IMG/VR virus record: IMGVR_UViG_2693429733_000020
Span: 1-4,057 of that record
Origin: a virus
Taxonomy: Duplodnaviria > Heunggongvirae > Uroviricota > Caudoviricetes
Direction: 5' to 3' (one strand)
DNA: 4,057 nt
Shown here: positions 1 through 4,057 of the stretch, in pieces
Numbering within the stretch: the first letter of the stretch is position 1
Layout of the letters: each line of letters begins with the position of its first letter
The notes under the pieces: generated by a model
Database searches by the model: none
What the model was told of the DNA's origin: nothing
What the model saw: the letters and a program-made list of their open reading frames with translations, nothing else
Program-made: the position numbers and the translations under genes

Positions 1-262
1 AAATAAATAACGCGTCGCCGGAAGCCACGTCATAAACCGTTTTACCCCGATGATCTTCAACGAGATGCCACGATGACTCATCACTGTTGAAAACAGCCAC
101 GAAACCAGCCGGAATATCTGGCGGTGCAATATCGGTACTGTTTGCAGGCAGACCTGTATGAGGCGGAATATATGCGTCACCTTCACCAATAAATTCATTA
201 GTTCCGGCCAGCAGGTTATAAATTTTTATGGTCCGTGCTTGTTCACTCATTCTGAATGCCAT
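1..262 (-). CDS. tfa: tail fibre assembly protein (Tfa), N-terminal 87 codons; gene continues beyond the window start
   Basis: Reverse-complement translation from ATG at 262..260 gives [87 protein letters not shown]..., which matches the lambda Tfa N-terminus as I recall it almost residue for residue. GAGG Shine-Dalgarno 8 nt upstream. Start overlaps the stf stop (TAATG). Open to the window edge. Confidence 0.9.
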
Positions 263-3200
263 TATGCGAGCCTCACAATATAGTTAAATGCGATGTTTTT
301 GACGGTGTTTTCCGCGTTACCAGCAGCGTTAACGGTGATGGTGTGTCCATGTGAACCAATCGCAACAGAGTGCGTATGAGCACCAATACCGACAGTATGC
401 GCGTGTGCACCCGCAGATGCTGCTGTGCCGGACAGTGAGTGTGTATGGTTTCCTTCTGAAGATGATTTACCTACCCATTGGGAGGTGCCACTGGTTAATG
501 AGCCACTGATACCAACCTGATTAGTCCCGCTAACTTGAGTACTCCCTGCCGGAAACATTCCAGTAGGTTGACTCCCGCTATTCGTTCTGGGCCCAGTCTG
601 ACTATGTTGGTGGGCCCCAGCTGAACTTGTAGAGCCGCTCAGACTGTGCGTATGCGCCCCGGTGTTATTCGTGGATTTAGTGCCGTAATCAAACGACGAT
701 GTGGTTTTCGTCCCCAAATCCGTACTGGATGCGCTGGCGCTGTGGGTGTGCGATTTAATGCCATCCTGTTCCTGAGACAATACGGCACGACCACTGGCGG
801 GCTTGCCCTTAATCGTCCAGCCACGCATATCAGGGATCACGCCTGACGGATAAGCGGCTGCAAGTTTCGGGTAAGCAGATTTGTCAAAAGTCTGCCCCTG
901 CATCAGGGCATAACCAGACGGAACGGTATCTGATGGCCACGGGATTGGTGCACCGACTGGATAAAACTCTGCAGGAGGATGAGCCGAGGTGTAAAGCTGC
1001 GCCCACGGCGACCAGTTTGCGTCGGTCGTATCCCGTCGTGAACGAATAAATGCCGGAGCATGAGCACCGCTTGTACCACTCCAGCCGATGAGTAACTCAC
1101 CTTCGCCAACGGCTGTCATCCCTTTCAGGTGAATGATATTTCCATACGCTGTTGGATATCCGTTGTTATACACCTCGTATAACTCAAGACCTGCTGCCCC
1201 CTGCGTATTGTCTGTCAGCGCGGCTACCCGACCTTTTGAAGCCAGATTAACTGATGATACTGCTGTTCCACCTGACGGTAGCGCCCCGATCTCTGATGCC
1301 GTTGGCTTATTTCTGGAGTTATAGTCCCTTCGCCAGCCAGGTGAATAATCTGTTCCGTGATTAATATAGGTAAACTGGGCGTTGGTTGTTCCGCCACCGC
1401 TGGATGTGGTCGGAGTGGTAATGCGGATCGTCATCGCTGACTTTATCCCCATTACTTCAATGACAGCTCCGGCGAGATGAATATTACCGCAGCCAGTATC
1501 AGTAATGATTTTATTATTGCCATAAGACCAGGAACCCTTGCACATCCAGTATGGATGGTTAAATGCTCCCTGAGAATCCAGCCACTCGATAAACTGTGCA
1601 GTCGTCCAGTTTCCTGTTGTTGTGCTTACTGACCCACCGAAGGCACGGCAGGCACCAATATTTTTCGTAAAGGTGTCTTTGCCAGGGATATCCGCACCGT
1701 TCTGATCTTTCTGCAGACGTTTCTCAGCATTGTCATTGGCTGCTTTTACTGCCTTTGGCGTTGCCGCCAGCGTTTCAGACGTGCTGTTGGTCGCGCTGCT
1801 TAGCTGGATTATCCCTTTCTGTGCTGTCGTTGCATCCTGTGCGGTGTATTTCCCGTTAGCCAGGTCATACGCGGCCTTAACGGCTTTTGGTGTTGCCGCC
1901 AGTGACTCGGAAGTGCTGTTAGTCGCACTACTGAGCTGTACTATCCCCTTTTTCGTCGTGCTCGCATCCTCAAGCGCCACGGCGGATGCAATATCCTCTG
2001 CCCGTTTTGCCGCTGTCTCAGCGCGCGTTGCTGCAGATTCCGCCGTACTTTTGCTCTGAGCTGCTGCCGTCGCACTACCAGCAGCCTCTGTCGCCTTCGT
2101 GGATGCCGTCGTGGCGCTGCCCNNNNNNNNNNNNNNNNNNNNNNNNNNNNNNNNTCGCTGCTGACGCCTGTCTGGTCGCCTCATCTTTTGAAGCAGACGC
2201 CGATGATGCCGATGACGCCGCCGAACTGGCGGACGATGCGGCAGCCGTTTTTGAGGATTCTGCGCTGGTTTCCGACGCTTTCGCGTTCGTTTCGGATGTC
2301 TTCGCTGCGGAAGCAGACCTCGCTGCTGCGCTGGCCTGTTCAGTGGCTTCGCCAGCCTTCGTTGTGGCTGTTGAAGCGGATGATGCGGCGCTTTCTGCCG
2401 ATTTTCCGGCGGCGGTGGCACTGACTGCTGCCTCCTCTGCCTTAATGGACGCCTCACGGGCCGATGATGCAGCTGCTGTCTCAGAGTCTGCCGCAGCTGA
2501 GGCGCTCTGTTCCGCTGCCGTTTCAGAAGACTTAGCATTCGTCTCGGACGTTTTTGCCGCCTTCACGGAATTTCCTGCCGCCGTTGCCGAGGAGGCTGCA
2601 CTGCTGGCGCTTGTGGAGGCGTTCGTTTCTGATGATTTTGCCGCCTCTTTGGAGGCCGCCGCATCTCTGGCTGAAGTGGCGGCTTCTGACGCTTTCGTCG
2701 TCGCAGTGGATGCAGAAGTGGCTGCTGATTTTTGTGACGCTGCAGCATTCGTTTCTGACGTTTTCGCCGCACCGGCACTGGTGGCCGCCGCGCTTTTTGA
2801 GGACTCTGCAGCGGCAGCACTTTTTTCCGCNTGTTGAAGCGGATGATGCGGCGCTTTCTGCCGATTTTCCGGCGGCGGTGGCACTGGCTGAGGCCTGCCC
2901 GGCACTTGTTGACGCGGCGCTGGCAGACGACGCAGCCGCTGTTTTTGAGCCTGCCGCAGCTGAGGCACTCTGTCCCGCTGCCGTTTCAGAAGACCTGGCG
3001 TTCGTCTCGGACGTTTTGGCCGCCTTCGCAGAATTTGCAGCCGCCGTCGCCGAGGAAGCTGCGCTACTGGCGCTTGATGATGCGTTCGTTTCTGATGATT
3101 TTGCCGCCTCTTTTGAAGCCGACGCATCCCGGGCTGAGGTGGCAGCTTCTGACGCTTTCGTGGTCGCGGTGGATGCAGAAGTGGCTGCTGATTGTTGTGA

Positions 3201-3987
3201 CGCTGCCGCATTCGTTTCTAACGTTTTCGCCGCACCGGCACTGGTAGCCGCCGCGCTTTTTGAGGACTCTGCAGCGGCAGCACTTTTTGAGGCTTCAGTG
3301 GCCTTTGTTGATGCCGTTCCTGCGCTGGAAGACGCTGACTGAGCCGACGAAGCGGCCTGTCCGGCTGACGTGCTGGCTGCACGTGCTGAATCTGCAGCAT
3401 CAGTCGCATGGGTTGCCGCCTCACGGGCTGATGTGCTGGCATCGCTGGCTGATTTCTTCGCGGCTGCCGTGTTCTGTGCCACCGCGGACGCGTTANNNNG
3501 CGGCCTGTCCGGCTGACGTGCTGGCTGCACGCGCTGAGCCTGCAGCATCAGTCGCATGGGTTGCCGCCTCACGGGCAGATGTGCCGGCATCACTGGCTGA
3601 CTTCTTCGCGGCTGCCGTGTTCTGTGCCACCGCGGACGCGTTACGCGCCACCTCTTCCACCATCAGCTCAAAACGGCGCAGTGCCTCCGGACGGGCATCA
3701 TCCTCCGTCATGGCACCGAGAAAATCATTCAGCGTACCGGGTCGGGAATCTTCATACACGGTGATGGTCCCGGCATGTGACGGCGGGAATCCTTCCACCA
3801 ACAGAATAACGCTGTACTGACCGTACTCAACGTCCATGCTGTAACGCCCGGCTTCATCCGGATTTTCTGAGGCCAGCGTGTTCACCACCACCGTGGTGCT
3901 GTTACGTTTTGCTTTCAGCTGGATTGTGCAGTTCTGTACCGGTTTTCCTGTGCCGTCTTTCAGTACACCTGAAATCTTTACTGCCAT
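262..3987 (-). CDS. stf: side tail fibre protein (Stf), lambda-like and mosaic; reading frame as given is broken at three N-runs
   Basis: ATG at 3987..3985 (the track's GTG at 3993 is 2 codons upstream) opens [36 protein letters not shown]..., the recognisable lambda Stf N-terminus. Four collinear in-frame segments on the minus strand: 3500..3987, 2832..3495, 2155..2830 and 262..2122, separated only by N-runs. The protein ends ...[31 protein letters not shown], then TAA at 262..264, which is lambda-Stf-like. Start and stop are in the same frame overall. Segments 2 and 3 read as continuous Ala/Ser/Thr-rich Stf repeat sequence. Confidence 0.9.
271..274 (-). promoter_or_regulatory. putative ribosome-binding site for tfa, inside the 3' end of stf
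   Basis: Minus strand GTGAGGCTCGCATA-ATG: GAGG with 8-nt spacing to the tfa ATG at 262..260. Confidence 0.4.
336..750 (-). other. His-rich repeat region of the Stf C-terminal tip (HTH/HAH/HQH/HGH motifs)
   Basis: Translation contains [57 protein letters not shown]: repeated G-x-H-x-H units of the kind found in lambda Stf and T4 gp37 distal tips. Confidence 0.55.
1732..1968. repeat. in-frame coding repeat, 2 copies with period 132 bp (44 aa), encoding the KGI(V/I)[11 protein letters not shown](S/T)[11 protein letters not shown] motif
   Basis: Minus-strand translation shows [35 protein letters not shown] and [35 protein letters not shown] at 1864..1968 and 1732..1836; the DNA copies are visibly similar on the plus strand. 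Confidence 0.75.
2123..2154. other. assembly gap or ambiguous bases (32 N)
   Basis: Run of 32 n characters inside the Ala/Ser/Thr-rich part of stf. Confidence 0.99.
2369..3293. repeat. tandem direct repeat, 2 x ~462 bp (2369..2830 and 2832..3293) joined by a single N; offset 463
   Basis: Both copies start tgttgaagcggatgatgcggcgctttctgccgattttccggcggcggtggcactg and end gaggactctgcagcggcagcacttttt. About 45 bp identical, then a ~65-bp divergent block, then roughly 92% identity. Both encode ~154 aa of Ala/Ser/Thr-rich Stf repeat ([24 protein letters not shown]...[11 protein letters not shown]). Confidence 0.8.
2831..2831. other. single ambiguous base (N)
   Basis: One n character, sitting exactly at the junction of two ~462-bp tandem repeat copies. 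Confidence 0.99.
3352..3643. repeat. tandem direct repeat, 2 x 144 bp (3352..3495 and 3500..3643) separated by NNNN; 137/144 identical
   Basis: Direct base-by-base comparison: copies start gcggcctgtccggctgacg and end gacgcgtta, with 7 substitutions. Each encodes [19 protein letters not shown](G/S)[14 protein letters not shown](G/D)[12 protein letters not shown] on the minus strand. Confidence 0.85.
3496..3499. other. assembly gap or ambiguous bases (4 N)
   Basis: Run of n characters, sitting exactly between two 144-bp near-identical direct repeats. Confidence 0.99.
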
Positions 3988-3990
3988 ATT

Positions 3991-3996
3991 CACCCC
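3991..3996 (-). promoter_or_regulatory. putative ribosome-binding site for stf
   Basis: Minus strand TTGTGGGGTGAAT-ATG: G-rich stretch 5 nt upstream of ATG 3987. Weak match to the SD consensus. Confidence 0.3.
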
Positions 3997-3998
3997 AC

Positions 3999-4025
3999 AA
4001 AAAAGCCCGCCTGAACCGGCGGGCT
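3999..4025 (-). terminator. rho-independent terminator between the upstream gene and stf
   Basis: Minus strand reads AGCCCGCC-GGTTCA-GGCGGGCT followed by TTTTT: a perfect 8-bp GC-rich stem (4004..4011 paired with 4018..4025), 6-nt loop and T-tract 3999..4003. The T-tract ends 11 nt before the stf ATG. Confidence 0.65.
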
Positions 4026-4057
4026 GTCATAACACTGTGTTACCTGGCTAATCAGAA

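Follow-up and report, generated by a model that had tools for sequence, protein, structure and literature searches.

The window (the whole 4,057-nucleotide stretch analysed, positions 1 to 4,057 of IMG/VR record IMGVR_UViG_2693429733_000020) covers the side tail fibre gene stf of a lambdoid prophage, which is encoded on the minus strand. The gene (262-3987, minus strand) runs from an ATG at 3987-3985 to a TAA at 264-262 in the list of open reading frames, and it is colinear with the annotated stf of PhiR68_2, Escherichia coli 64EVA, and E. coli FDAARGOS_943. In the window, stf is cut by three runs of N and lengthened by two duplications that we consider false. The 5' part of the tail fibre assembly gene tfa (1-262, minus strand) was recognized from its translation and from its annotation beside stf in relatives. 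Its first 87 codons are inside the window, and its ATG at 262-260 overlaps the stf stop codon as TAATG (260-264). Open reading frames also place the last codon and stop of lom at 4052-4057 (minus strand). Between lom and stf is a terminator-like hairpin with a T run (4004-4025, minus strand), in which an 8-pair stem with seven G-C pairs is followed by TTTTTGTGGG. The order lom-stf-tfa is also annotated in PhiR68_2, 64EVA, FDAARGOS_943, and lambda.

The intact equivalent of this stf in the IMG/VR prophage contig L012 encodes a 1027-aa protein with one copy of a 144-bp segment that the window has twice. Pfam profiles were run on the L012 protein, which is identical to blocks A and C of the window (the blocks are defined below) and to block D from 3602. 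It matched PF08400 (phage_tail_N, residues 1-134, 1.4e-71), PF03406 (Phage_fiber_2, 6.2e-37, two stretches), and PF07484 (Collar, 7e-12). Judged by domain content and gene order, the window gene is a lambda-type side tail fibre gene. It resembles lambda Stf in its gene order, domain content, and N- and C-terminal sequences, and a 47-48-aa segment that the window encodes twice occurs once in lambda. It differs in length and in the middle: lambda Stf has about 774 aa, whereas the true gene (as in L012) would encode 1027 aa, and its Ala/Ser-rich shaft is longer and its central part different. Toward the C terminus (window ~290-790, minus strand), Stf carries repeated His-x-His motifs (SHTHS, GAHTHS, GAHQHS, GNHTHS, GAHAHT, GAHTHS, and GSHGHT). 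These may resemble the metal-binding HxH repeats at the tip of the phage T4 long tail fibre.

The Ala/Ser-rich shaft (window ~2190-3290) consists of degenerate units with a commonest spacing of 42 nt (14 aa). One shaft family, D1, has twelve copies that are 60-73% identical to a 45-nt reference. Alternative frames of the shaft are open, and there are several long spurious open reading frames on both strands. Stf length varies among relatives: 1092 aa in 64EVA (L002), 1027 in L012, 1025 in PhiR68_2 (L001), 943 in FDAARGOS_943 (L015), and 774 in lambda (L040). The stf genes of L002, L012, and L015 were scanned and contained no large recent tandem repeat, so these length differences arose in some other way, for example by exchange of modules or through repeats that are old and diverged.

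A 144-bp tandem repeat is present in stf. Its units, copy A (3352-3495, minus strand) and copy B (3500-3643, minus strand), flank NNNN at 3496-3499, and a recount in the sequence gave the 137/144 identity reported in the initial annotation. TRF detects the repeat with a period of 148, and it forms direct-repeat family D3. The seven differences are at 3384/3532, 3390/3538, 3391/3539, 3429/3577, 3437/3585, 3444/3592, and 3453/3601. Translation bore out the earlier description of the coding content: both copies encode the same minus-strand segment (19 residues, S or G, 14 residues, D or G, and 12 residues), S/G and D/G are the two non-synonymous differences between them, and the frame is kept when 0 or 3 bases replace NNNN. 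As written, NNNN breaks the frame at 3496-3499 and gives three stops. The segment corresponds to residues 116-162 of intact Stf, where the N-terminal domain meets the Ala/Ser-rich shaft. It had been placed immediately after the N-terminal domain, but the final ~19 residues of the Pfam model for that domain (1-134) fall within it, and it is not wholly beyond the domain. Lambda has one homologous copy in a single place, 83% and 79% identical to the two window copies, in agreement with the single copy given for that phage in the initial annotation.

Three N runs occur in the window: 32 N at 2123-2154, a single N at 2831, and four N at 3496-3499. They split it into four blocks, A (1-2122), B (2155-2830), C (2832-3495), and D (3500-4057). 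Block A contains the 3' two-thirds of stf and the start of tfa, and block B an alternative version of the Ala/Ser-rich shaft. Copy A is the end of block C and copy B the start of block D, which also contains the conserved N-terminal domain and start of stf, the terminator-like hairpin, and the end of lom. The frame is broken at all three N runs as written, and the blocks themselves are otherwise intact. At 2831, the frame shift was determined from reading frame phases and translations, because open alternative frames in Ala/Ser-rich sequence make stop counts uninformative. The initial annotation had made no link from NNNN to the N runs at 2123-2154 and 2831.

Block geometry was measured against PhiR68_2 and 64EVA, and every N run is a break in colinearity with the finished references. 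At the A-B join the true gap is one base: A stops at L012 position 3281, and B begins at the base that corresponds to 3283. The base between them, 3282, is T in one stf allele (allele 1) and C in another (allele 2). The 32 N stand for this T/C difference, which is one base in every reference, and their stated length is off by 31 bases; the frame is kept there only with a gap length of 1 mod 3. The B-C and C-D scaffold joins are overlaps. Blocks C and D share exactly 144 bases, C ending at L012 position 4160 and D starting at 4017, and NNNN represents a negative gap of 144 bases in reference coordinates. Blocks B and C share 462 bases (457 aligned bases and the five terminal bases of B).

The overlap between blocks B and C appears in the window as a second repeat, with the single N at its junction (2369-2830 and 2832-3293). 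TRF reports it at 2367-3288 with a period of 463 and ~88% matches, and it forms direct-repeat family D2. Its first unit (462 bp, 2369-2830) is the allele-2 version of a part of stf, and the block C unit is the allele-1 version of the same part. In total, stf in the window is inflated by 606 duplicated bases and 37 Ns. For 215 bases of the gene between blocks A and C, the window has the allele-2 version only.

Comparison with related loci indicates that the blocks come from two stf alleles and are interleaved. Block A is identical to L008 and L012 (2122/2122) and, over the portion covered, to L014 (915/915). These three IMG/VR prophage contigs are contiguous at the stf locus, contain no N there, and have one copy of the segment. 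Block C is identical to L004, L008, L010, L012, and L014 (664/664) and aligns with single-copy loci as one colinear piece, and copy A, its true continuation, is identical to allele-1 loci (144/144). Block B reaches only 91.4% identity with allele 1. Its best match is the complete genome of E. coli FDAARGOS_943 (675/676 to stf, L015 4001-4676), which includes even the odd terminal TCCGC of the block. There the end of B runs on into TTCAGTGG... and not into the start of C. Copy B is identical to FDAARGOS_943 and 24 IMG/VR loci (144/144), and in FDAARGOS_943 its sequence follows block B after 58 bases, on the same strand and in one stf gene. On these identities, allele 1 (L012 type) comprises A, C (copy A included), and the part of D with the conserved N terminus, and allele 2 (FDAARGOS_943 type) comprises B and copy B.

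Block D carries allele-2 variants in its first 102 bases and is equal to allele 1 from 3602. It has seven mismatches to L012, all within 3532-3601, and these are precisely the seven positions at which copy A and copy B differ; 3602-4057 is identical (456/456). Against L015 there are three mismatches (3667, 3682, and 4046). The block is a mosaic in which allele-2 variants at 3532-3601 give way to allele 1 inside a 65-nt stretch common to both alleles. It could be either a chimeric contig or a piece of a second source stf with an allele-1-like N-terminal domain.

The association of copy A with the C type and of copy B with the B type had no exception among 39 fetched loci. Loci with a 100% match to copy A match C at 93-100% where enough of it is present, and match B at no more than 92%. 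Loci with a 100% match to copy B match C at ~90% and match B at 99.1-99.9% where at least 600 nt of B aligns (21 of 25 loci, FDAARGOS_943 included). The segment is single copy in 38 of the 39 loci; the remaining locus, L013, has two copies with an N in between.

The ends of the blocks coincide with transitions between the alleles. A ends before and B starts after the sole T/C difference within a 92-nt stretch that is otherwise identical between alleles. B ends two bases inside a 58-nt stretch common to both, and the first base of D is also the first of a 32-nt common stretch that follows an AA/TC difference. C reaches 42 nt beyond the last variant, and D starts 32 nt ahead of the first. Block ends at allele boundaries fit the branching of an assembly graph between similar sequences and not a biological duplication. 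We also considered deriving a k-mer size from the block ends; the distances are mutually inconsistent and gave no single value.

Tandem duplication would create junctions that can be searched for. A synthetic 80-nt C-D junction (the last 40 bases of copy A followed by the first 40 bases of copy B) had no match in 5,426 complete E. coli genomes at E<=1e-13. At the same threshold, a control of 80 nt over the natural boundary (window 3604-3683) was found at 5,336 places in 3,320 genomes. The synthetic B-C junction likewise had no match in the 5,426 genomes. The gapped pattern CCACCGCGGACGCGTTA-N{0,9}-GCGGCCTGTCCGGCTGA, which matches the window itself, had zero matches in IMG/VR, GTDB species representatives, and JGI metagenomes. 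A 561-base query taken across the repeat covers 413 bases in complete E. coli genomes, a shortfall of 148 (one copy and four Ns). TRF found no repeat of period 148 or 463 in stf of L012, FDAARGOS_943, or 64EVA.

These searches bear on the possibility that stf has genuine in-frame shaft duplications of 48 aa and 154 aa, produced by unequal or illegitimate recombination between the stf genes of co-resident prophages and with junctions that were simply not read. With the Ns deleted, both duplications are in frame (144 bases are 48 codons and 462 bases are 154 codons), which counts against an artefact; two overlaps that are multiples of three by chance have a probability of about 1/9, and the third N run departs from the rule. 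The shaft is also naturally built of degenerate Ala/Ser-rich repeats with 42-nt periodicity (family D1), and Stf length naturally ranges from 774 to 1092 aa across lambda, FDAARGOS_943, L012, and 64EVA. Against this, no tandem junction occurs in the complete genomes or the three public contig collections, contiguous references have no large tandem repeat, and contigs identical to the window across 3.2 kb of the locus have one copy. Two independent hybrid events would be needed, each with its junction right at an unreadable base, and also a third N run that happens to coincide with an allele SNP. The frames are broken as written. We regard genuine duplication as very unlikely. Of the two explanations that the initial annotation had offered, a real 48-aa tandem repeat is not supported, given these absent junctions, the broken frame, and the recurrence of the pattern at the other N runs. 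The other explanation, two alleles or paralogs scaffolded end to end, held up, with copy A from allele 1 and copy B from allele 2.

The 144-bp tandem duplication is, with high confidence, a false duplication introduced by draft-assembly scaffolding, in which two versions of stf were set end to end. For both the 144-bp and the 462-bp repeats, an N run (3496-3499 and 2831, respectively) lies exactly between the copies, the copies carry the variant sets of two alleles and not random errors, and finished or contiguous assemblies of the locus are single copy. A genuine in-frame repeat would have a readable junction and would recur in independent assemblies; here the junction is NNNN, the frame is lost, and the junction had no match in the complete E. 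coli genomes, IMG/VR, the GTDB representatives, or the JGI metagenomes.

The course of events that we infer is as follows. The sample would have held two stf versions that matched exactly or almost exactly across the N-terminal domain and at short stretches within the shaft, and that differed by ~5-10% between these shared stretches. The assembler may have broken the stf region into four contigs. The scaffolder would then have set the alternative versions in series instead of in parallel, as A (allele 1), B (allele 2), C (allele 1), and D (allele 2 leading into shared sequence), and would have written short N runs at joins whose predicted distance was negative or close to zero. Block D opens with the 144 bases of the gene on which block C closes, so the segment appears twice, and the second repeat would arise by the same mechanism from the 462 bases that B and C both cover. 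No source read would be expected to link ...GCGGACGCGTTA to GCGGCCTGTCC... if the duplication is an artefact. The true gene almost certainly encodes a single-copy Stf of 1027 aa, the same protein as in L012.

The two versions may have come from two co-resident prophages or from two strains. There was no overlap between the IMG genome identifiers of contigs with copy A and those of contigs with copy B when isolates with both alleles were sought. The window itself is the basis on which we infer the co-residence of both alleles in one genome.

False duplication can also arise when one sequence is assembled twice, with the seven differences as sequencing errors. Contig ends that overlap across a gap would give the same geometry. 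The seven differences match the second allele in many independent records (the FDAARGOS_943 locus and the 24 IMG/VR contigs noted above, each over the full 144 bases). The variant set reproduces a known allele, which random errors would not, and this excludes the sequencing-error reading for practical purposes; its probability is negligible. The initial annotation had likewise argued from the non-synonymous differences that the copies do not come from one molecule read twice, and the match of all seven differences to the second stf allele supports that argument. There is hardly any chance that the Ns were introduced by the data provider to mask real bases of a triply frameshifted stf pseudogene with real tandem duplications: some collections do mask stretches as Ns, but masking keeps length, and lengths here are not kept relative to any reference (the 32 Ns take the place of one base in each reference, and at the two remaining N runs the distances are negative), and the blocks are otherwise intact frames that are 99.9-100% identical to functional-looking genes.

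Scaffolding of two stf versions in series has a published parallel in vertebrate genome assembly. A gap between the members of a duplicated pair on one scaffold is a hallmark of false heterotype duplication (Ko et al. 2022, Genome Biol 23:205, PMC9516828). The window shares with these cases the gap between the pair, the allele-specific variants, and the single copy in finished assemblies. The published examples involve haplotypes of diploid vertebrates, whereas the window involves variants of a bacterial prophage gene. The artefact is a bacterial counterpart of the vertebrate false heterotype duplications (PMC9516828), here judged by criteria other than read depth and read pairs.

The window also contains a genuine repeat for comparison. 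Two sequences at 1732-1838 and 1864-1970 are 74% identical with a spacing of 132, and they encode two KGI[VI]... units of Phage_fiber_2 (PF03406) that are present in the contiguous references too. This repeat is old, diverged, in frame, free of N, and found in every relative; none of these properties applies to the 144-bp and 462-bp repeats.

The 144-bp repeat is an ordinary product of assembly and scaffolding and not a biological feature of the gene. It has little biological importance, and its value is practical. Gene callers would split stf in the window into three or four fragments or call it a pseudogene, and repeat finders would show two large tandem repeats in a receptor-binding protein; both would be untrue. 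Prophage tail fibre genes, conserved at both ends and variable in between, are present several times in an E. coli genome and are a predictable site for such artefacts. Studies of tail fibre length or repeat expansion that use draft genomes should drop repeats that flank Ns.

Single-N joins were also observed in other allele-1 drafts from IMG/VR: L013 (1348), L010 (3411 and 6838), and L008 (7274 and 10455). In L013 and L010, the joins are inside or beside stf, and pieces of stf are repeated on both sides. Scaffolding errors seem to recur at the stf locus. In L013, one N parts two 5' portions of stf.
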